A stretch of DNA of 64,000 nucleotides from Candidatus Aminicenantes bacterium (lineage in GTDB: Bacteria; Acidobacteriota; Aminicenantia; S016-38), in NCBI GenBank assembly GCA_026987025.1, contig JALSNJ010000040.1, positions 166,713 through 230,712 on the forward strand. The letters are read 5' to 3'. The notes beneath the pieces were generated by a model. The model made no database searches. It was not told the DNA's origin and saw nothing but the letters and a program-made list of their open reading frames with translations. The translations under genes were made by a program, and so were the position numbers. This document shows, piece by piece, positions 39,758 to 57,661 of the stretch. Within the stretch, counting starts at the first letter, position 1, and every line of letters begins with the position of its first letter.

Positions 39758-41013
39758 ACCTTTACCAGGAATTTCTCTGGAGGGGGTTTATATACCAGGA
39801 AAGCGAGGGTGCCAGGGAAGCTCTATCTAAGGGAAAAATAGTGGGCTACATAGGCTTTGACCCCACTGCCCCCAGCCTCCATGTGGGTTCTCTTCTGCCC
39901 ATCATGGGATTGGTTCACCTCCAGAGATACGGCCATACCCCCATAGCGGTGATGGGTGGGGCCACCGGAATGATAGGGGACCCCAGCGGAAAGAGCAAGG
40001 AACGGGTGCTGCTGGAGAGGGAAACCCTGGAGAGGAACCTCCAGGGGATAAGGAAGCAGCTGGAGAGGTTCTTATCCTTCGGGGGGGAAAATCCGGCAAT
40101 TATGGTGGACAATTACGACTGGACCCATAAACTCAGCGTCATTGACTTCCTCCGGGACATAGGAAAGCATTTCTCCGTGGGATACATGCTTTCCAAGGAG
40201 TCGGTGAAAAGGAGGCTGGAGGGGTCAGGAATCTCCTACACCGAGTTCTCCTACATGCTCCTTCAGGCCTACGATTTCCTTTACCTTTTTGACAAATACA
40301 GATGCACCCTTCAGATGGGAGGCTCAGACCAGTGGGGGAACATAACGGCAGGGATAGACCTCATAAGAAAGGTAAGGGGAGCCAGGGCCTACGGCATAGT
40401 ATTTCCCCTTCTGACCACCGCCTCCGGGGCTAAGTTTGGAAAAACCGAGGAGGGGACCGTATGGCTGGACCCTGAGATGACCTCCCCCTACAGGTTCTAT
40501 CAGTTCTGGATGAACGCCGACGACAGGGATGTTCCCAAGTACCTCAGGCTCTTTACCCTGCTTTCCAGGGAAGAGATAGAGGCTTTAGAGGAGGAGCTAA
40601 AGGAAAGACCGGAGAAAAGATTGGCCCAAAGGCGGCTGGCGGAGGAGGTGACCAGAATGGTTCACGGGGAGGAGGGCCTTAAAAGGGCCAAGAGGGCCAG
40701 CGAGGTTCTTTTCGGAGGGTCCTTAGAAGGAATTACGGCCCGGGAACTTGAGGAAATAATGGGACATGTCCCTTCCCGGCAAATTAGCAGGGACGAACTG
40801 AGCAGATTCACGGTTCTGGACCTGGCCCTGAAGGCCGGCCTGATCTCCTCCAGGGGGGAGGGCAAGAGGCTGATATCCTCCGGGGGGCTCTACCTGAACA
40901 ACAGGAAGGTGGATTCCCCGGCCAGAAGGATAGGGGAGGCCGACCTCATAGAGGGAAGGCTTCTGGTGCTCCGCAAGGGAAAGAAAAACTATCTTCTGGT
41001 TAAGGTAAAATAA
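39754..41013 (+). CDS. tyrS: Tyrosine--tRNA ligase
   Basis: HIGH motif as HVGSLLPI, KMSKS as KFGKTEEG, and a C-terminal S4-like domain. Confidence 0.95.
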   Translation: MNLYQEFLWRGFIYQESEGAREALSKGKIVGYIGFDPTAPSLHVGSLLPIMGLVHLQRYGHTPIAVMGGATGMIGDPSGKSKERVLLERETLERNLQGIRKQLERFLSFGGENPAIMVDNYDWTHKLSVIDFLRDIGKHFSVGYMLSKESVKRRLEGSGISYTEFSYMLLQAYDFLYLFDKYRCTLQMGGSDQWGNITAGIDLIRKVRGARAYGIVFPLLTTASGAKFGKTEEGTVWLDPEMTSPYRFYQFWMNADDRDVPKYLRLFTLLSREEIEALEEELKERPEKRLAQRRLAEEVTRMVHGEEGLKRAKRASEVLFGGSLEGITARELEEIMGHVPSRQISRDELSRFTVLDLALKAGLISSRGEGKRLISSGGLYLNNRKVDSPARRIGEADLIEGRLLVLRKGKKNYLLVKVK

Positions 41014-41032
41014 AAAACTTCAAGGAGGTAAT

Positions 41033-41752
41033 GTGAGAAAAATTCTTTTACCCTTTCTCCTTTTAGCCATGGTATGGGGGGCTTCGCCTCAGGACCCCTT
41101 AAAGGAGGCGGACCAATTAATTGAAAAGAGGGAGAACCTTCAGCAGGTGGCGAAGGCCATGGACATCCTCAAGAAGGAGCTTTCCGTTCATCCCTATGAG
41201 GCCGGCTGGAGGTATTTGAGGGCAACCTATTATTTCGGAAAGAAGTGCAGGGACAAGGACAAAAAAATTAAAGCTTATCAGGAGGGCATCAAACTGGGGG
41301 AGGACCTGGTGAAGAAGTATCCTGACCGGGTTGAGGGTCACTTCTGGCTGGGCGTTCTCTACGGGGTTTACGGGGAGGCCAGGGGGGTTATGAAAAGCCT
41401 TTTCCTCATAAAGCCCATAAAAAGGGAGATGAATGCCGTTTTGCGTTTGGACCCCGGCTACGATTGCGGAGGAGCTCAGAGGGTTCTCGGCAGACTTTAT
41501 TACAAAGTTCCGGGCCTTTTCGGAGGCAGCAAAAGCAAATCCTTGAAGTACCTTCTGGAGTCAAAGAAAATATGCCCCCACAGTCTCCTTACGAGAATTT
41601 ACCTGGCGGAGACCCTGATTTCCAGAAAGAAGAAGCAGCAGGCTAAGGCAGAGCTGGAAGAAGCCCTTAACTTAGAGCCCATTCCCTCGGAGAAACCCGA
41701 GGAAGAGGAGTATCGGACCAGAATAAAGGAGCTTCTTTCAAAGCTTAGATAA
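41033..41752 (+). CDS. Secreted TPR-like hypothetical protein
   Basis: Signal peptide. Helical-repeat character. No catalytic motif. Confidence 0.35.
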   Translation: MRKILLPFLLLAMVWGASPQDPLKEADQLIEKRENLQQVAKAMDILKKELSVHPYEAGWRYLRATYYFGKKCRDKDKKIKAYQEGIKLGEDLVKKYPDRVEGHFWLGVLYGVYGEARGVMKSLFLIKPIKREMNAVLRLDPGYDCGGAQRVLGRLYYKVPGLFGGSKSKSLKYLLESKKICPHSLLTRIYLAETLISRKKKQQAKAELEEALNLEPIPSEKPEEEEYRTRIKELLSKLR

Positions 41753-41816
41753 CCTCTCCCACAGCGTTTAGGGAATTTTACCCTTGACAATCGCCAGGGT
41801 TTGAGCCATCATATAA

Positions 41817-42173
41817 TTGATGCTTTGGGAAATAGCTTTACTCATTGTTTCGGTGGCTGTTCTTGTCTTTGTGGTGTTCTCCATCCCTGCCCTTTTACAA
41901 ATAAGGGATTCGGCCAAGGAGTTTGAATTTACCCTCAAGGAATTCCGCCAGACCCTTGTGAGGGTAAATAAGGCGGTGGACAAAGCCGACGAGTCCCTGG
42001 ATGAGGGAAGAAAAGCCCTCAGGAAAATAGAGAAGGCTTTGGATGCGGTGGATCAGACCCTGGGAGGCTCCACCCTCAGGTTTCTTGCGAAGCCTGTGTC
42101 GGGCCTTCTGGAGGCCATGCCGGTTATACTCTCCGCCAGCAAAATTTACAGAAAATATATAAGAAGGAGGTGA
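41817..42173 (+). CDS. DUF948-like membrane protein
   Basis: N-terminal TM plus a coiled-coil. Typical partner of YtxH-like genes. Confidence 0.45.
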   Translation: MMLWEIALLIVSVAVLVFVVFSIPALLQIRDSAKEFEFTLKEFRQTLVRVNKAVDKADESLDEGRKALRKIEKALDAVDQTLGGSTLRFLAKPVSGLLEAMPVILSASKIYRKYIRRR

Positions 42174-42177
42174 TAAA

Positions 42178-42426
42178 ATGGAGGACAGGGGAGCAACTTT
42201 CTTTGAGCTCTCTGTGGCTTTTCTTCTGGGTGCAGTTATAGGAGCCGGAGTGGCTCTTATGTTCGCACCGGCTCCCGGTCAGGAAACCAGGAAAAAACTG
42301 GCAGAGGTGGGTGAAAAGGCCATAGAGACCGGTAAGAAAATAGTGGAGGAAGGGAAGGAGAAGGTAACCCAGGTGGCCGAAACCGCCAAAAGCAGGCTTA
42401 AGAAAAAGCAGACGGAAAGCGCCTGA
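42178..42426 (+). CDS. YtxH-like small membrane protein
   Basis: LLGAVIGAGVALMFAPAPGQETRKKL matches the YtxH (GxxxGAGxALLFAP) signature. Confidence 0.5.
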   Translation: MEDRGATFFELSVAFLLGAVIGAGVALMFAPAPGQETRKKLAEVGEKAIETGKKIVEEGKEKVTQVAETAKSRLKKKQTESA

Positions 42427-42442
42427 GCCTGATATCCAAGAT

Positions 42443-42468
42443 GCCCCCCTGCAGGGGGGCTTTTTTAA
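42443..42468 (+). terminator. Rho-independent terminator
   Basis: gcccccc-tgca-ggggggc hairpin followed by tttttt. Confidence 0.6.
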
Positions 42469-42475
42469 TTTATAA

Positions 42476-44969
<2,494 letters not shown>

Positions 44970-44970
<1 letters not shown>

Positions 44971-45041
44971 GCGGGCGACGGGACTCGAACCCGCAACCAC
45001 GAGCTTGGGAAGCTCGCACTCTGCCATTGAGTTACGCCCGC
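44970..45041 (-). tRNA. tRNA-Gly (anticodon CCC)
   Basis: Reverse complement GCGGGCGTAACTCAATGGCAGAGTGCGAGCTTCCCAAGCTCGTGGTTGCGGGTTCGAGTCCCGTCGCCCGC. Anticodon loop TTCCCAA. Abuts the symporter stop codon. Confidence 0.8.
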
Positions 45042-45431
45042 TGACAGATTTTATTTTAATCAAAAAAAATCCCTCCGTCAACCTCCCGAATTGCTTAACC
45101 TTTAAAAACTTAAAAAGGTAAGGCCTTATCCCATTTCCTTGAAGTTTTTTGGGAACTTATTTAAGATTGGATTATCCGATCTGAAAGGCAGGCAATAGTG
45201 TGTGTAGACGGTTCAAGAACCGCCGCAGAAGGAGGATGCGGGCTGAGGGTTAGTCGCCTTCTTCAGGCTCTATCTGGAAGGTTTCCTATCCCGGAAGTTT
45301 TTGTTTTTGCCTTAGCCTTTCTTTTGAGTATTTATCACATAGGGGCGATAAAGGAAAGAAGGTCGTTTAAGGGAATAATGGTCTTTAGAATAAAAATCCA
45401 CAGCAAGAGGCTAAATCGGGAATCCTGAGGG

Positions 45432-47501
45432 TCACATAATTGTTACATCCTCTATCCTCACCGGGGAGGAAAAGACTATCTTAACCCTGTTGGAATTCCG
45501 TTCCAGGGGGGATTTTCTAAAATCAAGGAGGATTTCTTTCATACCCCCTATTTTTCTCTCCAGCAGGAACCTTCCGTTCAGGTAAACCCTTATCTTCCCC
45601 TGGAAGGCCCTTTTGAGAATCAAGTGCAACTTCTTCCTTCTCAGGTGAAAGGTGGAGTACCTCCTTACCAGCACCCTTACGGGCTCCCTTTCTATCACCT
45701 TTATCAGGGTAAATTTTTCCGTTTCCTTGAGGACCACCCCGTATTTTCTAATTTCTTTAACCCTCCTTTTAAGAAGTTCCTTCCACTCCTGGTTCTTAAT
45801 CAGGTCCCAATGGATTATGATGAAATTGACGGAGTAATTTCTGAGAAACCACCTTAAGTTTCTGTCCACCAGGAATTTTTTTGAATTGGCCCTTCCCCTG
45901 GCCTTTGGGTAATCCTGCGGATAGAAGGCGGCCCTTCCGTTTATTAAATAGTTCCAGTGAACTCTGGAATAAAAATTGTAAAGGTTGTTTCTCGGGGCCA
46001 GGAGCCCCCGATAAAAGGGAATCTCAAGTATAACCCTGTTTTCCTCCCTGGGGAGGTAATGGTAAACCTGGGGTGGGGACGGGAATTTCCTATAAAAGCC
46101 CGCCTCCGGATAGTAATTTTCCAGAAAAATCAAAGGGAAAAGCAGGCAGAGGAATGCGGTTTTCCTGCCGGGGGAGTTTATTTTGCCCAGAAGGTATTTG
46201 AAGCCTTCTATGGAGAAGTAGAGCAGTAGAGGATAAAGAAGCAGATACGACCTGGTGGGTGCCCTCAGTCCTTTCATGCCCGGAATGATAGAGGAAATTG
46301 CATAATATGGGGAAAACTTTATAGATGGGGCTAATGTAGAGAAATTGAAGAAAATGCAGGAGTATAAGATGGTGGTGAGGAGGAAGATTCTTTCCATAGG
46401 GGATAGGGCTTTCCTTTTAAATATAATGTGAAGGCTTTTGCCAATAAGCAGGATGAAAATAACCCTTGTCAGGGCAAGGTTTCCCAGAATCAGGGAAAGA
46501 ATGAGCAAAAGCCATACGAAGATGGAAAGGAAAGGCCCTCTTCTTAAATCCCTGAAGAGGAAGGATATGACCCCCAGCGTCAAAAACATCCCCAGGGAAA
46601 GAGGATAGGTTCCCCTCCTGAAAAAAGGGGCGTAGATTTTAAAGGCGAGCCAGGAATTATTGACCAGTAGGTTTTTTAGCCCCACCAGGTGGGAAAGGGG
46701 AATTAGCCTTTCGGTTCCGCTTCTGCGAAAGACTATTAAATACGGGTAAAAAACGGCGAGGATGGCCAGGGAGGTAAGGGCAAAGGTTCCCAGAGTCTTC
46801 AAAAAATCCCTCCCCCTTAACTCCCCCTCAAGCAGGAGCGCTGCAAGGAAGATGGGCAGGAAAAGGCCCAGGAGGTAGGTGCCCATGTAGGTGCTGAAGA
46901 AAAAGACTAAAAACCCCCAGAATCCCGTAAGTAGCAAGAAAAGCTCCCTTTTGGTTTTCAAATACTTTACGAAGAAAAATAGGAAAAGGGGTATGAGGGT
47001 GTGGGAGAGGATGTTTATGTGGACGAAGTTCACATAATTGGATGTGGCAAAGGCATAGGCGGTGGAGAAAAGGGCTGCCATTTCCCGATTTTCCGTTAAT
47101 TCCCTCAGAAGGAGAAAACTTCCCCACATGCCCACGAAGAGGAAAAACAAAATCAAAAAATTGTATATGATGTGGGGATTATCGGTCATAAGGCCTATGG
47201 GAAGGGCCAGGAAGGCGTGTCCCAAAAGATGGTGGGTGTAAAAGGTAGCATAACTGTTAGGGTAAAAGAAGTTCATGTGCCATAGATTGTAGAATCTGAG
47301 GTGTTTTATCTGATGTATGTGCCAATCTATGATGCTCATGATCAAAAGGGAATCCCTGTTTCCTCCGTAGGGGCTCCTGGAGGTAAATTTCAATATGAGC
47401 AGGGGATGGGAGAGGAGGAGCACCAGGGCAAAGAAGAGAAGTATCTTCCACCGGCCTTCGGCTTTAGCCGTGAGCTCACGGCTTTTTCCTGGGCTTTTCA
47501 A
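45432..47501 (-). CDS. Large polytopic membrane protein (YfhO-like / putative GT-C glycosyltransferase) with a C-terminal soluble domain
   Basis: 689 aa. About 14 TM helices in the first 440 aa, then a ~250-aa hydrophilic Lys/Arg-rich tail. The 4-nt start/stop overlap with the upstream mosaic gene shows co-transcription. Confidence 0.4.
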   Translation of the reverse strand: MKSPGKSRELTAKAEGRWKILLFFALVLLLSHPLLILKFTSRSPYGGNRDSLLIMSIIDWHIHQIKHLRFYNLWHMNFFYPNSYATFYTHHLLGHAFLALPIGLMTDNPHIIYNFLILFFLFVGMWGSFLLLRELTENREMAALFSTAYAFATSNYVNFVHINILSHTLIPLFLFFFVKYLKTKRELFLLLTGFWGFLVFFFSTYMGTYLLGLFLPIFLAALLLEGELRGRDFLKTLGTFALTSLAILAVFYPYLIVFRRSGTERLIPLSHLVGLKNLLVNNSWLAFKIYAPFFRRGTYPLSLGMFLTLGVISFLFRDLRRGPFLSIFVWLLLILSLILGNLALTRVIFILLIGKSLHIIFKRKALSPMERIFLLTTILYSCIFFNFSTLAPSIKFSPYYAISSIIPGMKGLRAPTRSYLLLYPLLLYFSIEGFKYLLGKINSPGRKTAFLCLLFPLIFLENYYPEAGFYRKFPSPPQVYHYLPREENRVILEIPFYRGLLAPRNNLYNFYSRVHWNYLINGRAAFYPQDYPKARGRANSKKFLVDRNLRWFLRNYSVNFIIIHWDLIKNQEWKELLKRRVKEIRKYGVVLKETEKFTLIKVIEREPVRVLVRRYSTFHLRRKKLHLILKRAFQGKIRVYLNGRFLLERKIGGMKEILLDFRKSPLERNSNRVKIVFSSPVRIEDVTIM

Positions 47502-48910
47502 CGGAGGATTGGTTTTCTCTTTGGGCGGGAGGGTCCGGGTCTTTCAGCAGGGCGGGGGGGCGATTTGAAGGGGAAGAAAGGCCGCCCTGAAAGGCCAGGG
47601 CCCTTTGTGGCTCTTGCTGAAGCCGGCGAAGGGCTCAGAACCACGCCCTCTCCACCATATTTATATGGTGTTCTATACTCAACAAGACCTGGAATTACAA
47701 CATAGTCTGTTCCATTCCTTTTTTTAAAGAATATATAAGCAGCTCTGAATTCTCTTTTACCAGGAACATAATGACCACCACCATACATACTATCTAATAA
47801 TCCTGTTGTAATATCATCATCACCACCTGGAAAAATAAAACCCTTCATTATCTCTTGGATTGTCATTCTTATGTTTCCTGCCGGTGACCTTGCTCTTGCG
47901 CTCTTTAATTCAAATGTTCTATCATCTACTGTTCTCATAGCACCTCCTATATCACTTTCCATATACTTAAGTATACCATCTTCTAGATCATCATTATCAC
48001 TTACATCAATCTTATTATCTTGAATAACACCAAAGCTTAACTTAGATACTAAGTCTGTTAATATCTCTCTTATTGTTGTTTTAACCAACACACCACTCTT
48101 TGGGTCTGTTCCAAAAGGGGCTATATTTAATAATTCTTTATTAGGATAAACCTCAATCTCAAGATCATTACCTGGTTTTGCAGATGCATAATATGCTTCA
48201 TTTGTAATCTCACTATAAGAAAAGTAAGCAGCAGCAGATTGTTTAATTCTAAAATTATTTCTTGTATCAAATATATTTTCAGGGACATAGCTGTCAATAG
48301 TTACTTCAAACACAGAATTATCTTTAAACTCAGGTGTATCCATTACTTCACCCATAAGTTCTTTTTTTATTCTTTTATTTGGTTTATCAGGAGATACATT
48401 AACCCATATTGTATAATCACCTTCTTTAAGCATAGGTGATTCTAATTCTACAATACCTTTACTGTTTGTTGTTCCTTGAGCTATTATCTCATTGCTATTA
48501 TCTTTTGTAATATAAACCTTAACACCACTAAAATCATTTATTCTTTCAAAGGTTATTGGTTCTCCTGTCTTCCATCTCGTTATGCTTGGAAAATTCTTAT
48601 ATGCATCCTCCAGCTTGACTTTAACCTTAATAGGCCTTGGCTCATGGGGAGTTTGTTTCTTCCCTGGGGAGGAAAGAAGGTAGAGGGCGGCTCCCGCCCC
48701 TAAGAGAACAGCACCTCCCAGAAGGTAGACCCATCCCCTTCGGTGTTTTTTCCCCTCCACAGCCACAGCCCCGGAGGGGACCCCGGCCCGGGAGGCCCTT
48801 CCGTAGGAGGGGCCAAGCAGCAGAAGAAGGCAGAGGAGGGAAACCAGAAGGCGGCTCGCCCACCGGCGGTGGCCCTTCGCCGAAAAAGCCCTGTCCTTCC
48901 GCTGGAGCAT
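47498..48910 (-). CDS. Membrane-anchored/secreted protein with a compositionally foreign (AT-rich) core domain; function unknown
   Basis: SD GGAGGTGA 4 nt before the ATG. N-terminal hydrophobic anchor VYLLGGAVLLGAGAALYLL. The core (~47690-48645) is ~30% GC and uninterrupted in-frame. A carboxypeptidase-regulatory/transthyretin-like beta motif (GEPITFERINDFSGVKVYITKDNSNEIIAQGTTNSKGIVELE…GDYTIWV) and a Pro/Arg-rich tail. Confidence 0.5.
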   Translation of the reverse strand: MLQRKDRAFSAKGHRRWASRLLVSLLCLLLLLGPSYGRASRAGVPSGAVAVEGKKHRRGWVYLLGGAVLLGAGAALYLLSSPGKKQTPHEPRPIKVKVKLEDAYKNFPSITRWKTGEPITFERINDFSGVKVYITKDNSNEIIAQGTTNSKGIVELESPMLKEGDYTIWVNVSPDKPNKRIKKELMGEVMDTPEFKDNSVFEVTIDSYVPENIFDTRNNFRIKQSAAAYFSYSEITNEAYYASAKPGNDLEIEVYPNKELLNIAPFGTDPKSGVLVKTTIREILTDLVSKLSFGVIQDNKIDVSDNDDLEDGILKYMESDIGGAMRTVDDRTFELKSARARSPAGNIRMTIQEIMKGFIFPGGDDDITTGLLDSMYGGGHYVPGKREFRAAYIFFKKRNGTDYVVIPGLVEYRTPYKYGGEGVVLSPSPASARATKGPGLSGRPFFPFKSPPRPAERPGPSRPKRKPILR

Positions 48911-48927
48911 CCTTCACCTCCGGGGAA

Positions 48928-48958
48928 ATTCTAAACCCCTCCGCCCAGGGATGTCAAG
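48928..48958 (-). promoter_or_regulatory. Sigma70-like promoter for the mosaic gene
   Basis: On the minus strand: TTGACA (48958-48953), a 19-nt spacer, then TAGAAT (48933-48928), then SD and ATG at 48910. Confidence 0.35.
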
Positions 48959-49004
48959 GCAGAGCTGGTTTCCAAAGGGAACCGTTTTTTAATTTCAGCA
49001 AAAC

Positions 49005-50588
49005 TCAAACTGAAAAACGCAGGGAAAAGGTGGAAGGACCTTTAATCGGAACCCTTAAACGGGGGGCCCCATGGGACTTTATGAAATCTATTTCCCTTCT
49101 GCAGCCCGGCGGGAGTTCCATCCTGAGGATGGTTCCTTCCCTTTTCATTTCTACCAGATCCTCCACCAGGGAAAGGGAGGTGCCGGGAAAAAGCACGGCG
49201 TTCCACAGGAATTTTCCCTCCAGCACCTCTATTTGAACCTTGAAGCCTCCTTTTTCTCTTATTATCTTCAGCTCCCCTGCCCCGGTGGCCCCGGAGGTTA
49301 TCTTTCCCCTGAAGGAGTCTCTATCGCAGGATATCAGCTTGAAGTCCATTCCCTCCCCTTCCCCCCAGAGACCTGTGCTCTTTTCTTTATCGCCCTTGTC
49401 AACGAGGGATAGAATCTGATAGCCGTCAGCCATTACTACCATGGAGAAGGCCTGGTCAGGGGATGTGGGGCTATGGCTTAAAATTATCTTAAGATTCCGG
49501 TGATGAAGGGTGGCGAAGGAGGCCTCCGCTGAGCAAAAGCCCCGGGGCTCAAAGGAGCCCGCCAGGGGTTTTACGAAGACTTCCACCCCTTCCACCGGCC
49601 GGGTCCCCACCTTGGAGCTCTGGTGGAAGGAACAGAGCAGTGAGATCAGGAACTCCGGATTTCTGGTGAATAAGTGCAAAGGAAGAAGATAATAACCCTC
49701 CTTTCCTCCTATGTACGGCAGGCCATCTCTGGAGTTTATCTCCATCAAAATTCTGGCCGCCGCCTCCATCTTGTCCCACGCCTCTCCTATGAGGTACTTA
49801 TTCTTGGCCAGAAGAAGGGTGGAGTAAAGGGAGGCCTCAAAGAAGGAAAGGTGTTCCTCCACCGACCTTCCTTTGTAGAAGCCCTCTTTGTCGGTTTCTT
49901 TGTGAAGGAAGGAGATGAATTCCTCCAGGAACTGGTCAAAATCAGGGGCTGGCATGGAGAATTTTCTTAGGAATACCCCCGAGAAGATCAGGGAGGGGAG
50001 CCTGAGAACCCTGAGCCATCCCCGGGGATTTACTTCCTGCCTTATGAACAGGTAGTGTTGAAGGATGGAGGCTGCTAATTTCCGGAGATTTTTCTCATCC
50101 TTAGAAAATTCCTCCTTCAGGGCATCGTAAAGCAGGGGAAAAACCACGGCCCTGGTCATTACGGCCCTTTCGCTCTTCCAGCCTATTCCCCGCAGGGGCG
50201 GGTTTTTGTCTATCCATCCGATGAGGGTGGAGACCGTTTTTTTGTATAAATTTCCGTCGCCTTTGTACAAGTAGGAAAGGGCAGGGAGGAGCAACCAGGA
50301 AAAACCTGTAAGGACTTCGGCGTCCCCCGGGCATCCTCCCTTTTTAAGGCAGGATTGTGAGGGAAGGGGAAGCTTTCCTGTAAAGGGAAGGGCAATTTTA
50401 TTGGACAGGAATTCTTCCCTGGCCCTGCGGATGAAAGGGGGCTCTTCTTTGTCGGGACGGCGGAGTAGGAAGTTAAACTTAAGGGGAAAAATGGGTTTTG
50501 CCTCCTTAGCCTCCGCCCTGAGCCATTTTTCTTTTTTAGAAGGAACCAGGCTTTTTAAGTCAATCATTGCCTTTTTATGATAAAACAA
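49005..50588 (-). CDS. Heparinase II/III-like protein (putative polysaccharide lyase / glycan-modifying enzyme)
   Basis: 527 aa. Alpha-helical toroid-like N-terminal half and beta-rich C-terminal half. Resembles the heparinase II/III family proteins common in O-antigen/capsule loci. The call is tentative. Confidence 0.35.
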   Translation of the reverse strand: MFYHKKAMIDLKSLVPSKKEKWLRAEAKEAKPIFPLKFNFLLRRPDKEEPPFIRRAREEFLSNKIALPFTGKLPLPSQSCLKKGGCPGDAEVLTGFSWLLLPALSYLYKGDGNLYKKTVSTLIGWIDKNPPLRGIGWKSERAVMTRAVVFPLLYDALKEEFSKDEKNLRKLAASILQHYLFIRQEVNPRGWLRVLRLPSLIFSGVFLRKFSMPAPDFDQFLEEFISFLHKETDKEGFYKGRSVEEHLSFFEASLYSTLLLAKNKYLIGEAWDKMEAAARILMEINSRDGLPYIGGKEGYYLLPLHLFTRNPEFLISLLCSFHQSSKVGTRPVEGVEVFVKPLAGSFEPRGFCSAEASFATLHHRNLKIILSHSPTSPDQAFSMVVMADGYQILSLVDKGDKEKSTGLWGEGEGMDFKLISCDRDSFRGKITSGATGAGELKIIREKGGFKVQIEVLEGKFLWNAVLFPGTSLSLVEDLVEMKREGTILRMELPPGCRREIDFIKSHGAPRLRVPIKGPSTFSLRFSV

Positions 50589-50591
50589 AAA

Positions 50592-52313
50592 TCACCAGTT
50601 TCCAAAAACTTTCACACCCAGAACCCTTCTGTCTTTGCTTGCGAGAACCCTGGCCGGCACAAAAGTGGGGTGAACCCTGAGCTCCAGGAATCCCCTTCCC
50701 GTTATCCTCAATTCAACCCTCCTTTGAGCCGGGCTGAATACGACTGTCTTCAGCTTTTTTCCTCTCCAGAAGACCTCCGCCCTCTGGAAGGGTATTCCGG
50801 TTTCCTCAAAGGGAAAGGCGGACTCCAGAACCAGGGGCTTTTTAAAAGAAAAGTAAATTCCGGCTTCGCCAGCGCTCCAGCGGAACCTACCTTCCCGGCC
50901 ATAGAGGCCGTAGAAGTACGGTTTCCCCTTCTTCAAACACCAGTGGGCTGGATGCAATTTCTGGAAGGATAGAAGGCCCCCGAGGATGAAGAACAGAGAT
51001 AGGATAATGGGTAGTGCCCTGGGAAGTTTTATCTTCGCGGGGGTGAGCTTGCTCAAAAGGAAGAAAAACAAGAGGATAACCTCTGGATTCCAGAGGACGC
51101 TGTGCACGAGGAAGGCTATCAAGAACAGCACAAAAACCCTCTTTTCAGGGCCGGGCCTTGCCAGGAGGAAGGGGACGAGAAAGACCACGAAGGCGATGAG
51201 CCCGACGAGACCCAGCTCGGCGGCTACCCCGAGATAAACCGATGGGACCACATCGTTGACCTTAGGGTGGTCGTATTCTGCCATTACGAAGAATATGAAA
51301 TTCCCCGGGCCCACTCCGGAGAGGGGAGCCTCCCTCAAAGCCCTCAGTGCCCTGGAATAGAGGAAGTTTCTCCCTTCGGTCAGGAGGGTTAAATTTCCCG
51401 GGTTTCTGGCGTATTTCCCCATTCTTTTCCACAGGTGAGGCAGGGAGAGAAGGAGGAAAAACAAAAGAAGGGAGAAGTATTTAAACTTGAATTTCCCCAC
51501 TTTTTTCCTGTCCAGGGCAAAAAAGACAAGGGCTAAAACCATCATGAGGAGGCCCGTTCTGGAGGAGGAAAGAACCAGCACGCCCAGGGGAGGGAGGGAC
51601 CAGAGGGCCTCTTTGAATGTGTTTGACCTCAGGAGAATCCAGGAGAAAAGGGCCGCCGAAAATATCCCTGCGGCGTTGGGGTCCGAGAAGGTGCCGTTGA
51701 ACCGGTGAATCCATCTCCAGGGGCCGGAGGGGAGGAAAAATGGCCCTGCGAATTTCTGCACCAGGGCCGCGGCCAGGGGGATGATGGTGGCGGCGGAAAG
51801 AACCCTCAGCCCTTCCTCAACCTTTACCCTTTTAAAAAAGAGGTATCCCAAAGGGCCTGCCGTGTAGAGAAGGAGGGTTGTGGCCAGGAGCAGGACCCCA
51901 AAGGAAAAGCGGGGACCTCCGGGAGCCACCGGGGTATCCTTTAAAAAGGCCAGGGGAGAGAGGGTCAAATTGGACCAGCGAAGCAGAAGGAAGAAGGCCC
52001 CAAGCCATATTAAAATGAGAAAGGGAGAGTAATAGGGCACATTTAATTTTTCCCGCCGCTGAGCCAGGAGGTATCCTGCCACCGGATATATGGAAAAACC
52101 CAGATAATTGAAGGGAATTTCCACCGGAAGGAACCAGGCCAAGGCGTTTACCAGGGGAACCAGGAACAGTGGTAAGTAAGGAGCCCTTCGGGTTAAGGTT
52201 CCGGCCAGGAAACCTGTGAGAAAAAGCCCCAGAAAGAACGGGAGGGCACCCAGCCGGGAGAAGGCCCAGATGTGGAGAAGGAAGGCCAAGGCCGCAGCTA
52301 TTTCAAAGCTCAA
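50592..52313 (-). CDS. O-antigen ligase / polymerase-like (Wzy_C-type) membrane protein with a C-terminal periplasmic extension
   Basis: Twelve predicted TMs with a large loop (…SSSRTGLLMMVLALVFFAL…) typical of WaaL/Wzy_C proteins, plus a ~150-aa C-terminal soluble domain. Confidence 0.5.
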   Translation of the reverse strand: MSFEIAAALAFLLHIWAFSRLGALPFFLGLFLTGFLAGTLTRRAPYLPLFLVPLVNALAWFLPVEIPFNYLGFSIYPVAGYLLAQRREKLNVPYYSPFLILIWLGAFFLLLRWSNLTLSPLAFLKDTPVAPGGPRFSFGVLLLATTLLLYTAGPLGYLFFKRVKVEEGLRVLSAATIIPLAAALVQKFAGPFFLPSGPWRWIHRFNGTFSDPNAAGIFSAALFSWILLRSNTFKEALWSLPPLGVLVLSSSRTGLLMMVLALVFFALDRKKVGKFKFKYFSLLLFFLLLSLPHLWKRMGKYARNPGNLTLLTEGRNFLYSRALRALREAPLSGVGPGNFIFFVMAEYDHPKVNDVVPSVYLGVAAELGLVGLIAFVVFLVPFLLARPGPEKRVFVLFLIAFLVHSVLWNPEVILLFFFLLSKLTPAKIKLPRALPIILSLFFILGGLLSFQKLHPAHWCLKKGKPYFYGLYGREGRFRWSAGEAGIYFSFKKPLVLESAFPFEETGIPFQRAEVFWRGKKLKTVVFSPAQRRVELRITGRGFLELRVHPTFVPARVLASKDRRVLGVKVFGNW

Positions 52314-53376
52314 AGAGGTCCTCCTCCTGGACTTCTTCCAGTATCCACGAAGGAGGTGTAAGGCCGAATTTTTCCAGGGACATCCCGAAAAGTCCCCGGA
52401 TCTCCTCCAGGTCCCTCAGAGGGGAAATCCTCTCCAGGGTGTTCCATACATACTCTAAAGCGTCCCTGGTGGATACCTTTATGTCCTCTATTTTTTCATT
52501 GGAGAAAACAAAAAGGGGGGTGAAATTACCCACTTCCTTCAGGTCCTTTAGCAATTTCTTCCTCAAAAGAGGAAACTTCTGACCGAGGCTCCGGAGGAAG
52601 TCGTTGAGGGCTGAGCTTAAAAGCTTTTTCTCCGGCTCAAATTTTTTCATAAGGTCCAGTCCCACCTCAAGCCTTGAAATTTTGTTTAGAAACTCAAAAA
52701 CCAACTCCCCCTTTATAACATCCCCGTGCTGGGGGGCAATGACCTCGGGCATGGGGTTAAGGAGGGTTATTCTGGCCACCGTTTCCTGTAGGGCCCAGCG
52801 GGTGGGCATGTAAATCTGGTGGAATATGGAGATTCCCTTCCACGATTCGGAATTAGCGTAAACTCCCTCGCCCTTTCTGGTATTGAACCCGGCCAGAAAA
52901 TCCCCTGAGTAAAGAACCCTGCTCTCTAAGTCAAAGAACATGGTGGAGCCACGGAAATGACAGAAATATGCCGGGACGAACTGTATTTTATGCCCGGTTT
53001 TTTTAAGGGTAATTATTCTTCTGGATATAGGTTCCACCCCCTTCAGTTTTTTCTCGTCCACCCCGTACATTTTTATTAGCCTCAGGGTATCCACCGAGGA
53101 TATAATCACGGCCCTGGGAGCCAGGGAAAGAAGGGCGAGCACATTGGCTGAAACATCCGGGTCCTGGTGGCTCAGGAAAATAATATCAAGGTTTTCCACG
53201 CATCCTGCCAGTTCTCTCATGGCATCCACAATCATTTCCAGGTCCAGCTTAGTACCGGGGTCCATTACCATCACCAGTTGGACTTCTTCCTTTCGGAATA
53301 CCTTTATATAGATGTTCCTGTGGAAATCCCTCTCCCCGCTCCTTAGGAGATAAAAATTTCTTCCTATGGTCTCCAT
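52303..53376 (-). CDS. Metallo-beta-lactamase-fold protein (degenerate HxHxDH motif)
   Basis: DIIFLSHQDPDVSAN sits at the position of the MBL HxHxDH motif, with downstream His/Asp ligand contexts (APQHGDVI). About 190 aa of helical C-terminal extension. Confidence 0.4.
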   Translation of the reverse strand: METIGRNFYLLRSGERDFHRNIYIKVFRKEEVQLVMVMDPGTKLDLEMIVDAMRELAGCVENLDIIFLSHQDPDVSANVLALLSLAPRAVIISSVDTLRLIKMYGVDEKKLKGVEPISRRIITLKKTGHKIQFVPAYFCHFRGSTMFFDLESRVLYSGDFLAGFNTRKGEGVYANSESWKGISIFHQIYMPTRWALQETVARITLLNPMPEVIAPQHGDVIKGELVFEFLNKISRLEVGLDLMKKFEPEKKLLSSALNDFLRSLGQKFPLLRKKLLKDLKEVGNFTPLFVFSNEKIEDIKVSTRDALEYVWNTLERISPLRDLEEIRGLFGMSLEKFGLTPPSWILEEVQEEDLFEL

Positions 53377-53499
53377 GGTTGCCCCTTCTGGCCTTACAAG
53401 TAAATAATAGGAAGGGGAGGTAAAAATGGCAAGGAAAAGGGTTTTTTCTGGAAAAATTCCTTTATTTTTCGTAAAAATAGATGTGAGATTAATAAGGAG

Positions 53500-56400
53500 G
53501 TGGACTATATGAGAAAATTCTTAGCCCTTTTAATCCTTCCGGTACTGCTTCTGGCGGGCACCAGGCTTTTAAGGATGCCACATATCAGCGGGGACAAAAT
53601 CGTTTTCTCCTATCAGGGGGATATCTGGATAGCCCCGGCCTCCGGGGGCAGGGCCCACAAACTCACCTCTTATCCTGGCTTTGAGTCCTACCCGAGGTTT
53701 TCCCCCGACGGGAAATATGTGGCCTTTACCGGTCAATATCAGGGAGGGGTGGATGTTTATGTGGTGCCCTTGAGCGGAGGGGATCCGGTTAAACTTACCT
53801 ATCATCCGGGGTGGGAAGAGGTGGTGGGGTGGACCCCCGATGGAAGGGTGGTTTTCGTCTCCGACAGGGAAGCCATATTCCCCACAGCCACGGCCTTTTA
53901 CTCGGTGGACCTGAAGGGGGGTTTTCCGGAGAAGCTGCCCATTGATAGGGGCAGTTTCATAGACTTTTCCCCCGACGGAAGGTATGCCGTCTTCAACAGG
54001 AACAGCGGTTATTTCTGGTGGTGGAAGAGGTATAAGGGCAGCGCCAACCTGGATGTCTGGATTGTGGACCTGAAGAAAAGAAAATTCCGCAGGCTCACCT
54101 CCTGGAAGGGAAACGATGCCTGGCCCATGTGGGGAGCGGATGGAAGGGTTTACTTCGTATCGGAAAGGGACGGTATAGCCAACCTTTATTCCCTGGACCC
54201 CATGGCCAAAAATCCTGCCTCCACCATAAAAAAACACACTAATTTCAAGGAGGACGGCATCCAGTGGCCCTCCATTTCCACCGAAAGGGACAGAATAGCC
54301 TTTGAGCAGAACGGAGAGATTTATGTGTATTACATAAGAAGCGGCAGGCTGGTTAAGCTGGACATCCAGGCCAGAGGGGACCTTCCCTTTCCCTTAAAGG
54401 AGGTTACCAATCCCCAAAAGCTCCTGGGTTCCTTTTCACTTTCCCCCGGCGGAAAAAGGCTGGCTTTGGAAGCCAGGGGGGAGATATTCTCGGTGCCCAG
54501 GAAATACGGCCCCACCAGAAACCTTACCCGCAGTCCCAGAAGGGATAGGGACCCGGCCTGGTCCCCGGACGGAAAATTCGTTGCCTTCGTCTCCGACCGG
54601 GACGGGGAGGAGCAGCTCTATCTTGCGGAGGAGAAAACCGGAAAGTTGAACAGGCTCACCCGCATCCCCCTGTTCAAGAAGCACCCGCTCTGGTCCCCGG
54701 ATGGGCAGAAGATAGCCTTTGCCACCAACGATGGGGGAATCCACATAGTATTTGTGAAGGATAAAAGGACCCTCCTGGTGGACAAAAACCCCACGGGGAT
54801 GAGCCTTGACTACAGCTGGTCTCCGGACAGCAATTTCTTGGCTTATACAAAGAGGGGGAGAAATGGATTGGGGGATATTTTCGTCTACAACCTCAAAGAG
54901 AGGAAGAGCTACAGGTTGATATCCTCCTCCTTTGACGACTTCAGCCCTTCCTTCACTCCGGATGGGAAGAGGCTTATCTACCTATCCATGGATGTAATAA
55001 AGCCCTCCTTTGACTTCTTTGCGGAGATGATAACGGTCAGGGGAGGAACCAGGATTATGAGCGTGGACCTGGTGCCAGGGCTTGCAAACATTTACGAACC
55101 GCAGCCCGACGAGGTGGAGGTAAAGCGGGAAGGGAAAAAAGGAAAAGGGAAGGCGGAAGAGAAGAAAAAAGGCGTTCAGGTTAGGATAGTTTTTCAGGGC
55201 ATAACCGAAAGGATAAGAGCGGTTCCCGTGCCCGCTGGCCAATATTACACCCTGGCGGCGGTGGGGAATTACTACATCTTCTGGGACTACAAGGAGAAGG
55301 CCCTTAAGGCCTACAATATTAAGTCCAGAAAAACCGAAACCTTCGTGAAGGGGATAGAGGGCTACGACATATCCCCCGATGGTAAATTCATCGCTTACAG
55401 AAAGGGAAAGAAAATTGCCATAGCCAGGCTGGGCAAAGTCTCCAGGGACGAGTTCGTTTCCCTTCAGGGATTGAGGATGGAGCTGGACAGGCTGGCGGAG
55501 TGGAGGCAAATCTTTGACGAGGCCTGGCGAATGGTGAAGGACTACTTCTACGACAAGAACCTTCACGGCGTGGATTGGAAGAAGGTAAGGAAGCATTACG
55601 AGGCCCTTCTTCCCTATGTAAGGACCCGTCAGGAGCTCAACATGCTGCTGGAGGAAATGGTGGGGGAGCTCAACGCCTCCCACCAGGGGGCCAGGGGCGG
55701 CGACTTCGGGGTGAAACTTCCCAGGTACAATGTGGGTTTCCTGGGGGTTAAATTCTCCCCTGACCGCTCCAGGGGGCTTTACCGGATTGTCCACATATAC
55801 GCCCACGACCCCGATGTCAGGGCCTTCCACAACCCCGCCTCTGGACTTTTAAAGGAAGGGGAATACATATTGAAGATCGGAGGTCAGCCGGTTTCCGCAT
55901 CCAAGAACATTTACTCCTACCTGGTGGGTTATGCCGGAAAGGAGGTGGAACTTGAGGTTTCCCCGGATGGTAGCAAAGAAAGGGCCAGGAAGGTGATAAT
56001 AAAGGCCATCTCCTCCGAGGCCATGCTCATCTACCACGACTGGGTGGAGAGGAATCGCAGGTATGTGGAGGAGAAAAGCGGAGGAAAAATCGGCTACATC
56101 CACCTCCACGACATGGTGAACTTCGGAATGAGTCAGTTCCTGCGCTGGATAAACGCCTATCGCTATAAGGAGGCCATAATCATAGATGTAAGATTTAACG
56201 GTGGAGGGGGAATTGACCCCTACCTCATAGACATTTTAGAGAGGAGGCCGTATCAGACGGTGAAGGGAAGGAACCAGATAGCGGTGGAAAGGCCCATGGG
56301 AGGATTTTACGGTCATGTGGCCGTTCTAATAAACCAGTTCTCCTATTCCGATGCGGAGGTCTTTCCTGCCGCCTTTAAGGCAAGAAAACTCGGCACCCTC

Positions 56401-56676
56401 ATAGGCGTTCCCACCTTGGGCTTCGTCATAGCCGTCACCTCCTATCCCATGATAGACGGAGGATATGTAAGGAGGACAAGTTGGGGTCTCTGGGAGCTCA
56501 GCGGTGAGATGCTTGAAGGAAGGGGAGCCATACCCGATATCTATGTGGAAAATCCGCCGGAGGCCGTCCTGGCCGGGAAGGACCCCCAGCTGGATAGGGC
56601 CATAGATTATCTTCTGAAGCAGATAAAGGAACATCCCAGAAGGGAGTATCCAAGGCACTACTTCAAAAAACACTGA
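53500..56676 (+). CDS. Tricorn-protease-like protein (tandem beta-propellers, PDZ, S41 C-terminal peptidase)
   Basis: 1058 aa. Signal peptide. Repeated TolB/WD40-like blades (SPDGKYVAF, SPDGRYAVF, SPDGKFVAF, SPDGQKIAF). A PDZ-like segment (ILKIGGQPV). A C-terminal S41 domain (IIDVRFNGGGGIDPYLID…). Confidence 0.75.
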   Translation: MDYMRKFLALLILPVLLLAGTRLLRMPHISGDKIVFSYQGDIWIAPASGGRAHKLTSYPGFESYPRFSPDGKYVAFTGQYQGGVDVYVVPLSGGDPVKLTYHPGWEEVVGWTPDGRVVFVSDREAIFPTATAFYSVDLKGGFPEKLPIDRGSFIDFSPDGRYAVFNRNSGYFWWWKRYKGSANLDVWIVDLKKRKFRRLTSWKGNDAWPMWGADGRVYFVSERDGIANLYSLDPMAKNPASTIKKHTNFKEDGIQWPSISTERDRIAFEQNGEIYVYYIRSGRLVKLDIQARGDLPFPLKEVTNPQKLLGSFSLSPGGKRLALEARGEIFSVPRKYGPTRNLTRSPRRDRDPAWSPDGKFVAFVSDRDGEEQLYLAEEKTGKLNRLTRIPLFKKHPLWSPDGQKIAFATNDGGIHIVFVKDKRTLLVDKNPTGMSLDYSWSPDSNFLAYTKRGRNGLGDIFVYNLKERKSYRLISSSFDDFSPSFTPDGKRLIYLSMDVIKPSFDFFAEMITVRGGTRIMSVDLVPGLANIYEPQPDEVEVKREGKKGKGKAEEKKKGVQVRIVFQGITERIRAVPVPAGQYYTLAAVGNYYIFWDYKEKALKAYNIKSRKTETFVKGIEGYDISPDGKFIAYRKGKKIAIARLGKVSRDEFVSLQGLRMELDRLAEWRQIFDEAWRMVKDYFYDKNLHGVDWKKVRKHYEALLPYVRTRQELNMLLEEMVGELNASHQGARGGDFGVKLPRYNVGFLGVKFSPDRSRGLYRIVHIYAHDPDVRAFHNPASGLLKEGEYILKIGGQPVSASKNIYSYLVGYAGKEVELEVSPDGSKERARKVIIKAISSEAMLIYHDWVERNRRYVEEKSGGKIGYIHLHDMVNFGMSQFLRWINAYRYKEAIIIDVRFNGGGGIDPYLIDILERRPYQTVKGRNQIAVERPMGGFYGHVAVLINQFSYSDAEVFPAAFKARKLGTLIGVPTLGFVIAVTSYPMIDGGYVRRTSWGLWELSGEMLEGRGAIPDIYVENPPEAVLAGKDPQLDRAIDYLLKQIKEHPRREYPRHYFKKH

Positions 56677-56719
56677 ACCCTGTTGACTGAGGAAGGGCAA
56701 GTCATTTAAACTTTTATTC

Positions 56720-57661
56720 GTGAAGAAGATTTCAGTGGTTATTCCGGTCTATAACGAGGAGGAAAACCTCCTTCCTTTGTACGACGAGCTTAAGGAAGTT
56801 CTGAAGGACCTTCCCCTGGAGCACGAGATAATAATGGTGGATGACGGGAGCAAAGACCGCTCCTGGGAGATAATAAAGGACTTAGCCAGCAGGGACCCAT
56901 CGGTTAAAGGGATAAGGTTTCGCAGGAATTTCGGCCAGACCCCTGCCATGGTGGCGGGTTTCCACGAGGCCACCGGCGATGTGGTGGTGACCATGGACGC
57001 CGACAGGCAGAACGACCCCAAGGACATTCCCAGGCTCCTGGAGAAGATGAGGGAAGGATACGACATAGTGAGCGGCTGGAGGAAGGACAGGAAGGACCCC
57101 TTCCTCACCAGAAAGTTGCCCTCCATCATAGCCAATAAACTCATCTCCTGGGTGACGGGCCTTCACCTTCACGATTACGGCTGCACCCTCAAGGCTTACA
57201 AAGCAGAAGTGGTGAAGAACATAGACCTTTACGGTCAGATGCACAGGTTCATTCCTGCGGTGGCCTCCATGTACGGGGTGGAGGTGGCGGAGATAGTGGT
57301 AAACCACAGGCCCAGGGTGGCGGGAAAATCAAAATATGGCCTTTCCAGAACCTTCAAGGTTATCCTTGACCTTATTTCCCTCAAGTTCCTCCTGAGCTAT
57401 TCCACAAGACCTCTCCACATCTTCGGTGGACTGGGCCTTCTTTCCTTTACCCTGGGGATGATATCCGGGCTTTACCTTACCTACATAAAATATGTGCACA
57501 GGAAGCCCATAGGAAATCGCCCTCTTCTTTCTCTAACGGTCTTATTGATTTTAGCAGGGGTTCAGCTAATAGTTCTGGGACTGCTGGGTGAGCTCCTCAC
57601 CAGGGCCTATCACGAAAGCTCCGGCAAGAAGATATATTCCGTAAAGGAAAGGGTGCCTTAA
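56720..57661 (+). CDS. GT2 polyprenol-phosphate glycosyltransferase (GtrB/ArnC/DPM1-like)
   Basis: ISVVIPVYNEEENL, the DxD-like MVDDGSKD, DADRQNDP, and two C-terminal TM helices. Confidence 0.85.
   Translation: MKKISVVIPVYNEEENLLPLYDELKEVLKDLPLEHEIIMVDDGSKDRSWEIIKDLASRDPSVKGIRFRRNFGQTPAMVAGFHEATGDVVVTMDADRQNDPKDIPRLLEKMREGYDIVSGWRKDRKDPFLTRKLPSIIANKLISWVTGLHLHDYGCTLKAYKAEVVKNIDLYGQMHRFIPAVASMYGVEVAEIVVNHRPRVAGKSKYGLSRTFKVILDLISLKFLLSYSTRPLHIFGGLGLLSFTLGMISGLYLTYIKYVHRKPIGNRPLLSLTVLLILAGVQLIVLGLLGELLTRAYHESSGKKIYSVKERVP

Follow-up and report, generated by a model that had tools for sequence, protein, structure and literature searches.

Wzy_C and heparinase-like genes as a conserved pair beside a GT-C glycosyltransferase insertion at a tRNA-Gly gene of Candidatus Aminicenantes

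Candidatus Aminicenantes bacteria are uncultured, and to our knowledge nothing is known of their cell envelope. In this study, a 64-kb stretch of a metagenome-derived contig from this group (ENA ERZ27262668), referred to as the window, was analyzed, with a main focus on a putative cell-envelope glycan region next to a tRNA-Gly gene. [quoted passage not shown] A tricorn-like protease and a GT2 glycosyltransferase are encoded on the opposite strand (Table 1). A preliminary description of this DNA had regarded these genes as the cluster of a single glycan pathway.

Table 1. Features of the region and related elements. Positions are those of the window, unless preceded by the L number of a contig or locus of a relative; GC3 is the GC content at third codon positions, TM is transmembrane.
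Feature	Position	Strand	Description
tRNA-Gly, anticodon CCC	44969-45041	-	ARAGORN; Rfam tRNA 67.9 bits; kept in L003 and L004
Promoter-like site of tRNA-Gly, TTGACG-17-TAAAAT	45053-45081	-	10/12 matches; right-hand edge of insertion
Lineage-specific insertion, ~3.9 kb	45042-49004		390-bp spacer, GT-C gene, 470-aa gene and its promoter
GT-C-fold membrane glycosyltransferase, 689 aa	45432-47501	-	~13-14 TM helices and C-terminal soluble domain of ~230 aa with beta-sandwich
470-aa orphan gene	47498-48910	-	two N-terminal hydrophobic segments, weak Ig-like signal at aa 127-182, Pro/Arg-rich tail
AT-rich in-frame core of 470-aa gene	47651-48650	-	from GC and GC3
Shine-Dalgarno GGAGGTGA and promoter-like site before ATG 48910 of 470-aa gene	48917-48957	-
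Promoter-like site upstream of 470-aa gene, TTGACA-18-TAGAAT	48957-48928	-	11/12 matches
Heparinase II/III-like protein, 527 aa	49005-50588	-	predicted cytoplasmic, canonical catalytic residues absent
Wzy_C-family polytopic membrane protein, 573 aa	50592-52313	-	PF04932
ODP-family di-iron MBL-fold protein, 357 aa	52303-53376	-	PF19583
Promoter-like site upstream of ODP gene, TTGCCA-17-TATTAT	53404-53432	-	10/12 matches
Tricorn-like S41 protease with signal peptide	53500-56676	+	PD40, Tricorn_C1, PDZ_Tricorn, Peptidase_S41 (Pfam)
GT2 polyprenyl-phosphate glycosyltransferase, ArnC/GtrB type, 313 aa	56720-57661	+	PF00535
Sulfatase-family lipoprotein orthologs	L005:11560-13536; L012:10271-12328; L002:2374-4377; L019:2646-4649		658-685 aa

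The five minus-strand genes had been described as one co-directional, overlapping row, and all of them were found at the positions given. The 3' end of the 470-aa gene overlaps the start of the GT-C gene by 4 nucleotides (nt), and the ODP gene overlaps the start of the Wzy_C gene by 11 nt. The Wzy_C stop is separated by 3 nt from the longest open reading frame (ORF) of the 527-aa heparinase-like protein; the true start of this gene is likely ATG 50567, located 24 nt past the Wzy_C stop, and its orthologs begin with MIDLK. However, a gap of 94 nt with a near-consensus promoter lies between the heparinase-like gene and the 470-aa gene, indicating that the five genes are probably organized in two transcription units. 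The ODP, Wzy_C and heparinase-like genes are likely transcribed together from the site at 53432-53404, and the 470-aa and GT-C genes likely from their own promoter. The tRNA-Gly gene is likely a further unit, transcribed from its own promoter at 45081-45053. An Rfam scan of the window returned tRNAs only.

The 573-aa protein matches the family Wzy_C (PF04932) over residues 243-376 with an E-value of 4.5e-13 and 49.7 bits, above the gathering cutoff of 31.7, which agrees with the O-antigen-ligase/Wzy_C-like protein that had been proposed. Precomputed PF04932 matches are carried by all of its orthologs. According to hydropathy, the protein has approximately 11-12 hydrophobic segments and, in addition, an extra aromatic-rich C-terminal domain of approximately 120 aa. 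In the alignment of the orthologs, H293, R297, R315, R321 and D354 are invariant and are located in a large loop. A polytopic membrane protein with a Wzy_C domain and a large loop with invariant His, Arg and Asp residues resembles WaaL, Wzy and PglL, and, as in the case of many waaL and pglL genes, the 573-aa gene is found outside a sugar-assembly cluster. It differs from these systems in the extra C-terminal domain and in always being followed by the gene of a presumably cytoplasmic heparinase-like protein. For the loop His and Arg residues, the comparison with WaaL of E. coli K-12 using hhalign was uninformative, and neither the ortholog profile nor the 573-aa sequence by itself gave a useful match against solved structures; the same was true of the 689-, 527- and 470-aa sequences when each was searched alone. 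Since the Wzy_C module stands alone, as waaL and pglL often do, a ligase or oligosaccharyltransferase-type reaction is favored and is given an even chance, with a function as polymerase being rather unlikely.

For the 527-aa protein encoded next to it, no Pfam match was obtained at thresholds. A word-indexed search resulted in five close relatives, and an exhaustive profile search resulted in 135 proteins, the distant members of which (approximately 640 aa) carry the domains Hepar_II_III_N and Hepar_II_III_C. The nearest out-group protein, P0031, matches Hepar_II_III_C (PF07940) at 1.4e-21. A profile made of canonical members only aligns with residues 95-325 of the 527-aa protein (102.8 bits), and the combined profile matches heparinase III (PDB 4mmh) with an E-value of 1.5e-52. 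The same structure was the best Foldseek match in the PDB (E 1.9e-13) for an AlphaFold model of low confidence (pLDDT 56). The match to 4mmh and the alignment with the canonical profile support the heparinase II/III-like assignment of the preliminary description, both in homology and in fold. As in heparinase III and other PL12 enzymes (4mmh, 5jmd and 4fnv), an alpha-toroid and a beta-sandwich are predicted, with the homology to Hepar_II_III_N proteins covering residues 95-325.

The catalytic motifs of these enzymes are not retained. In the alignment, the position of the Asn-His dyad is either a gap or W-L-R, E245 stands in place of the 'YH' Tyr with H246 being kept, GDxD has become GGKE, and HxHxD is absent. 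The block DPGT...HNT is deleted in the Aminicenantes clade of the family, and in the C-terminal domain the match to the canonical profile has been lost. The columns of the lost motifs are N216, Y270 and H400 in the 4mmh chain, or N240, Y294 and H424 when an offset of 24 residues is applied, which we take to be the proposed catalytic residues of Pedobacter heparinase III. Compared to the heparinase III/PL12 enzymes, the protein is also shorter (527 versus approximately 640 aa) and has no signal peptide; in the hydropathy analysis, neither a signal peptide nor a TM segment was observed. Because these are missing and the canonical motifs have been lost, the sequence most likely represents a cytoplasmic protein that is not a canonical lyase.

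Two of the closest canonical relatives, P0032 and P0034, are encoded inside classical Wzx/Wzy-type clusters together with Bac_transf, Polysacc_synt, GT4s, DegT and UDP-sugar dehydrogenase, indicating that this branch of heparinases is associated with biosynthesis and not with degradation. The 527-aa gene likewise accompanies glycan-assembly genes. It differs from the heparinase-like genes in capsule and O-antigen clusters in that it is paired with a Wzy_C gene alone, without a full Wzx/Wzy cluster. In V. vulnificus, the heparinase II/III-like gene VV0358 of the capsule locus is required for capsule (PMC6037467).

Conceivably, the heparinase-like protein acts as an enzyme through a re-wired site. 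As a lyase or else as a uronate C5-epimerase it would, together with a Wzy_C polymerase, make or size a uronic-acid polymer, by analogy with AlgL in the synthesis of alginate or with the lyase-fold epimerases AglQ and VNG1058H in N-glycans of archaea. The fold and homology on which this proposal builds are secure, and H178, H246, E244, E251, N129 and R146 are invariant in the family. However, substitution or deletion has removed the Asn-His dyad, the Tyr and the His of HxH, the Aminicenantes clade has no DPGT...HNT block, and the C-terminal domain falls outside the canonical profile. The genomic context of the nearest canonical relative, beside a UDP-sugar dehydrogenase, and the lyase-fold epimerases known in lipid-linked glycan assembly (PMC3827465, PMC12624080) fit an active enzyme, and yet, given these losses, such a function is considered doubtful. 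The idea that AglQ of Haloferax is itself a heparinase II/III protein proved to be wrong; its fold similarity is given as alginate-lyase, GH88 and AGE-type, so that it serves as a loose analogy only (PMC3827465).

The Wzy_C gene is directly upstream of the heparinase-like gene in 7/7 contigs (the window, L003/L009, L004, L005, L006/L008, L007 and L010). In L003 (the same as L009), the gene order is tricorn-like protease, divergent from Wzy_C, heparinase-like, tRNA-Gly, gltP and eno, without the ODP, 470-aa and GT-C genes. L004 has the order ODP, Wzy_C, heparinase-like, tRNA-Gly, gltP and eno, again without the 470-aa and GT-C genes. In L005 and L006, the protease gene is divergent from Wzy_C and heparinase-like genes that are followed by a sulfatase-family gene, and L007 contains the C-terminus of Wzy_C followed by the heparinase-like gene. 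The pair in L010 is only 37-40% identical and is located in an unrelated neighborhood. Of the genes of the block, only these two are always adjacent. Conservation within the lineage, which had been named as an outcome that would speak against a glycan cluster, thus applies to the Wzy_C and heparinase-like pair only, which was present in all relatives examined. A literature search for a described pairing of Wzy_C and heparinase genes gave no result.

Despite being conserved as a pair, the two proteins diverge quickly. Identity with L003 and L004 amounts to 53-56% for the heparinase-like protein and to 63-74% for the Wzy_C protein, versus 76-96% for flanking proteins (GT2 92%, FBA 96%). For the 500 nt at the 3' end of the heparinase-like gene, no DNA alignment with either relative is possible. 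This pattern would be typical of genes for variable surface glycans, and the rapid divergence fits a surface glycan that varies between strains. In L010 (1177-5519), an operon runs divergently from the pair and encodes a LuxE-like protein (faint match), a protein without assignment, an Acetyltransf_6-like protein (faint match) and a Phosphodiest protein of the alkaline-phosphatase superfamily. The proteins of this operon may be partners in envelope modification.

The part of the region between the heparinase-like gene and the tRNA-Gly gene has a different history. Based on blastn, the window is collinear with L003 and L004 from 40004 to 45042, the 5' end of the tRNA gene, and collinearity resumes near 49500. 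In both of these close relatives, from which the insertion is absent, the tRNA promoter is located approximately 8 nt past the stop of the heparinase-like gene, and the tRNA starts 47 nt past this stop. The window has kept this promoter at the tRNA-Gly gene, and approximately 3.9 kb has been interposed after the heparinase-like stop. At the junctions, only AATT(C) microhomology is found; long direct repeats and a duplicated tRNA fragment are both absent, and the called genes do not include an integrase. L004 is the nearer of the two relatives to the window, so that a single insertion explains the pattern more parsimoniously than the same deletion occurring twice. A block at 45.4-53.4 kb had been suggested to be variably present next to the tRNA-Gly gene. 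A variable segment does exist there, but in the comparison with L003 and L004 it extends over 45.04-49.0 kb.

An insert that adjoins a tRNA gene, is absent in relatives, dips to a GC content of 0.43-0.46 and contains a gene with strongly foreign codon usage, the 470-aa gene, could be seen as a classical island, horizontally acquired and integrated at tRNA-Gly. However, it is located on the 5' (promoter) side of the tRNA gene and not at its 3' end, and no duplicated tRNA fragment or long direct repeat was found, nor an integrase among the called genes. Furthermore, the foreign appearance is limited to the 1-kb core of one gene. The GC3 of the GT-C gene is host-like (0.60), its lower total GC content being due to amino-acid composition, and its closest homologs are approximately 50% identical and originate from metagenome contigs. 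An island of this type is therefore regarded as improbable.

The 689-aa protein encoded in the insertion has no Pfam or NCBIfam match. It has 24 homologs, three of which are close (approximately 50% identical), and the remote ones carry DUF6311, PTPS_related or PMT_2, some with discoidin. An AlphaFold model based on its alignment (pLDDT 82.5, pTM 0.85) shows approximately 13-14 TM helices followed by an alpha/beta and beta-sandwich domain of approximately 230 aa at the C-terminus. In Foldseek searches of the PDB with this model, all top matches were GT-C proteins (STT3, DPY19, PglB, AftD, ArnT, AftA and ALG12), with ArnT as the best structural match. GT-C enzymes are expected to have an acidic residue in the first external loop, and a near-invariant Asp, D50, is found just after the first TM helix in this family. 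The protein had been described as a YfhO/GT-C-like protein with 14 TM helices. Model and Foldseek matches agree with the GT-C fold and with approximately 13-14 helices, but the YfhO identity (PF09586) was rejected, as none of the 24 family members matches YfhO at E <= 0.01. Unlike ArnT, PglB/STT3, PMT, AftD and DPY19, the protein fits no curated family, its relatives weakly touching PTPS_related, PMT_2 and DUF6311. From the fold and from the presence of a GT2 both in the relative L012 and at 56.7 kb, the sugar donor is probably linked to polyprenyl phosphate.

Eight other loci with relatives of the GT-C gene were compared (L002, L011, L012 and L019-L023), none of which contains a Wzy_C gene, a heparinase-like gene or the orphan. 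The orthologs in L002 and L019 are 48-50% identical and are located in a different context. In L012, a distant GT-C relative is part of an operon with nucleoside diphosphate-sugar genes, a GT2, a methyltransferase and a sulfatase-family gene, which supports the GT2-to-GT-C logic as a general scheme without specifically supporting it at this locus. A relative with 28% identity in another lineage (L011:7506-9350) is convergent to an enolase-YtxH-DUF948 block without gltP, tRNA-Gly, Wzy_C or a heparinase-like gene; its position beside eno could be a coincidence or point to an older association of the GT-C family with the eno locus. In the sister lineage, represented by L002 and L019, the GT-C orthologs are followed by an unrelated protein of 414-422 aa without a Pfam match (L002:12130-13398, L019:10118-11362). 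In L002, this protein has a hydrophobic N-terminus and a linker rich in Ser, Gly, Thr and Lys, which parallels the orphan beside the GT-C gene of the window. It was considered as a homolog of the 470-aa protein and rejected, since the two are not homologous.

The 470-aa protein is an orphan, as only the protein itself was found among 5.8 billion protein clusters, and no match was obtained in the PDB, PHROGs, phage genomes or IMG/VR. Its weak Ig-like signal consists of matches to bMG3, Big_13 and Big_1, and its tail can be described as Pro/Ser-rich as well as Pro/Arg-rich. The protein had been described as mosaic, and the composition along the gene agrees with this. From residue 1 to approximately 85, the GC content is 0.58-0.70 (GC3 0.53-0.80); from approximately 100 to 420, it is 0.24-0.38 (GC3 0.07-0.33); and for residues 421-470 it returns to approximately 0.62 (GC3 approximately 0.5-0.6), so that both ends of the gene are host-like. 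The GC3 of the whole gene is 0.314, versus 0.628 +/- 0.037 for 32 other genes of the window (z = -8.5), and the AT-rich core is the sole stretch in the window with a GC content below 0.38 in windows of 300 nt. The 3' boundary of the core, near 47650, is abrupt. In DNA of 31% GC, a frame staying open for over 300 codons would arise by chance with a probability that we estimate at approximately 1e-11. In addition, an identical protein is present in five sources (NCBI, JGI, Logan, ENA and GEM), including a second strain in which the neighboring proteins differ slightly. Therefore, the ORF is a real gene, the central domain of which is of very-low-GC origin, and this in-frame foreign-composition core of 1 kb is a clean case of domain-level mosaicism.

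Several other explanations of this gene were considered and rejected. An intein or mobile element is not indicated for the AT-rich core, as no Hint or endonuclease domain is present and the boundaries (…YGG|EGV…) lack intein splice residues. An assembly chimera is unlikely considering the identical protein in the five sources, and a phage origin is not indicated by the searches of PHROGs, phage genomes and IMG/VR. A C7 tract in the tail was considered as a phase-variable homopolymer, but it is not unusual, as runs of at least seven G or C are common in the window.

The ODP gene, at the other end of the row, was found only in the window and in L004 and is absent in L003, L005 and L010. The 357-aa protein matches PF19583 (E 1e-40) and the oxygen-binding di-iron protein structures 6qnm and 6qrq (E 3e-22), with a conserved SHQDPDVS motif. 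The MBL di-iron domain aligns over residues 37-244. Compared to ODP (6qnm, 6qrq), the protein has approximately 110 extra aa at its C-terminus, there are no chemotaxis genes nearby, and its gene overlaps the Wzy_C start. By its sequence, it is a homolog of the O2/iron-sensor type without an evident glycan role. The MBL-fold partner that had been reported is thus present as an ODP-type protein, but a glycan role is not indicated. A weak resemblance to a cargo protein of encapsulins (6n63, E 0.0014) was noted for the C-terminal extension (residues 182-315).

The divergently transcribed tricorn-like protease adjoins the Wzy_C and heparinase-like pair in L003, L005 and L006 but not in L010, and this neighborhood was observed in Aminicenantes only. 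At the opposite end of the region, a gltP-like transporter ORF of the SDF family (43894-44970, 358 aa) is matched by its family profiles only from approximately position 39-54, indicating that it lacks the usual N-terminus. The ORF ends in a stop that shares 2 nt with the 3' end of the tRNA-Gly gene convergent to it, and this short form of gltP is kept in L003 and L004.

The GT2 protein encoded beyond the protease matches PF00535 (E 3e-37) and, in NCBIfam, ArnC (1.6e-63, the best match) and PgfS (5.7e-51), both under the curated equivalog cutoffs. A GT-A domain with DDGS and DAD motifs is followed by two C-terminal TM helices, which is the architecture of polyprenyl-phosphate glycosyltransferases. 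The family match, the architecture and the coordinates all agree with the polyprenol-phosphate transferase of the preliminary description. Its further proposal, that a polyprenyl-phosphate GT2 and a GT-C transferase together represent a known logic of extracytoplasmic glycosylation, also holds, and in L012 the distant GT-C relative is co-operonic with a GT2. The GT2 protein is, however, 92% identical in L003, which has no local GT-C gene.

Extracytoplasmic glycosylation systems with two or three components, such as ArnC/ArnEF/ArnT, GtrB/GtrA/GtrC and CsbB/GtcA/YfhO, also combine these types of genes. The likeness consists of an ArnC/GtrB-type GT2 gene and a GT-C gene 9 kb apart, which are in one operon in L012. 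In contrast to these systems, the two genes of the window are on opposite strands, are not co-inherited and have no small flippase gene nearby. Among the called genes of the window, no Wzx-, GtrA- or ArnEF-type flippase, priming phosphoglycosyltransferase, cytoplasmic GT4, chain-length regulator or exporter (PCP/OPX) is present. The other called genes are housekeeping genes for fatty-acid synthesis, the S-adenosylmethionine cycle, tyrosyl-tRNA synthetase (TyrRS), EPSP synthase, UvrB, proteases, FBA, SurA-like peptidyl-prolyl isomerases (PPIases) and ThiI. A Wzx/Wzy-dependent locus is therefore not represented in the window, as none of the required partners is found among the called genes, and neither is a three-component Gtr/Arn system, as no GtrA/ArnEF-like ORF was found and relatives show no synteny between the GT2 and GT-C genes.

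Taken together, we lean towards reading the region as a composite, made of three units with independent inheritance, and not as one dedicated glycan pathway. The individual assignments of the GT2, GT-C, Wzy_C and heparinase-like proteins in the preliminary description stand. Its single pathway is only partly supported, since these genes are not co-inherited and only the Wzy_C and heparinase-like pair travels together. The composite is drawn from gene content, folds, synteny, insertion boundaries and composition; as to the donors, the acceptors and the role of the heparinase-like protein, we infer the following scheme. In the first unit, the Wzy_C protein would act in a WaaL- or PglL-like manner at the inner membrane's outer face, moving a glycan linked to undecaprenyl diphosphate onto a lipid or a protein. 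On the cytoplasmic side, the heparinase-like protein would be an accessory without lytic activity that binds the substrate, provides a scaffold or regulates. The second unit would be the ODP gene, gained upstream of the first unit in one sub-lineage and probably regulatory or unrelated. The third unit would be the insertion with its own promoter, in which the orphan membrane protein is followed by the GT-C gene with an overlap suggestive of translational coupling. The GT-C protein would take a polyprenyl-phosphate sugar, for example the one that the ArnC-like GT2 at 56.7 kb would make, and glycosylate an extracytoplasmic acceptor. Lipid A, a glycan or the co-transcribed orphan protein are candidate acceptors, the orphan being included because its gene overlaps the GT-C start by 4 nt and its tail is rich in Pro and Ser.

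The same genes can be assembled into one pathway, in which the GT2 would charge undecaprenyl phosphate, the GT-C protein would add the sugar outside the membrane, the Wzy_C protein would polymerize or ligate, and the heparinase-like protein would trim, with the mosaic surface protein or a polysaccharide as the target. All needed folds are indeed encoded within 12 kb, but a flippase and a priming enzyme are absent among the called genes. The five minus-strand genes are co-directional and closely packed; even so, the 470-aa and GT-C genes are located behind a separate promoter. A GT-C relative shares its operon with a GT2 in L012, and a sulfatase-family neighbor is common to the heparinase-like and GT-C modules across genomes. 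Nevertheless, the parts are not co-inherited, and the GT2 is retained where a local GT-C gene is absent. Trimming is also difficult to reconcile with a heparinase-like protein that is probably cytoplasmic and lacks the lyase residues. One pathway is considered unlikely for these reasons.

A number of points weigh against the composite reading or against parts of it. The adjacency of the first and third units in this genome could reflect a shared function. In L005, an ortholog of a sulfatase-family lipoprotein directly follows the heparinase-like gene, and in L012 another directly follows the GT-C gene; further orthologs lie within 5 kb of the GT-C gene in L002 and L019. This weakly and indirectly links both modules in function. 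These orthologs are 34-50% identical and have a lipobox Cys and an FTRA Thr-type motif that replaces the CxPxR formylglycine motif; the window contains no copy. The polarity of the insertion rests on three genomes. The Wzy_C assignment stands on a single Pfam match, and ligase and polymerase cannot be separated because neither a solved structure nor WaaL of E. coli could be aligned. The 'catalytically dead' status of the heparinase-like protein comes from alignments and the low-confidence model (pLDDT 56), and a re-wired active site is possible, as H178, H246, N129 and R146 are kept.

Starting from the composite reading, a more far-reaching proposal can be made. The Wzy_C protein and a dead cytoplasmic protein of the heparinase fold might form an unrecognised two-subunit glycan ligase or polymerase, in which the pseudo-lyase would serve as a subunit for substrate recognition or gating. 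The slot between the heparinase-like gene and the tRNA-Gly promoter might be a swap site for envelope cassettes, here occupied by a GT-C gene that is translationally coupled to its own surface-protein substrate, the ectodomain of which would have been replaced in frame by very-low-GC donor DNA. As a whole, this combination is speculative and has a small chance of being correct.

The component families are all known, so that no new principle is shown and current understanding is not overturned. What is new is the arrangement, in which a Wzy_C protein has a degenerate cytoplasmic partner of the heparinase fold and a GT-C glycosyltransferase is accompanied by a mosaic orphan. For these bacteria, an apparent glycan cluster splits into a conserved but fast-evolving pair of Wzy_C and pseudo-heparinase genes and a recent GT-C insertion, which provides concrete targets for heterologous tests. 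If the heparinase-fold protein is a non-catalytic subunit of the Wzy_C enzyme, the repeated occurrence of heparinase II/III-like genes in capsule and O-antigen loci could become easier to explain, as could the requirement of such a gene, VV0358 of V. vulnificus, for capsule without a known role.

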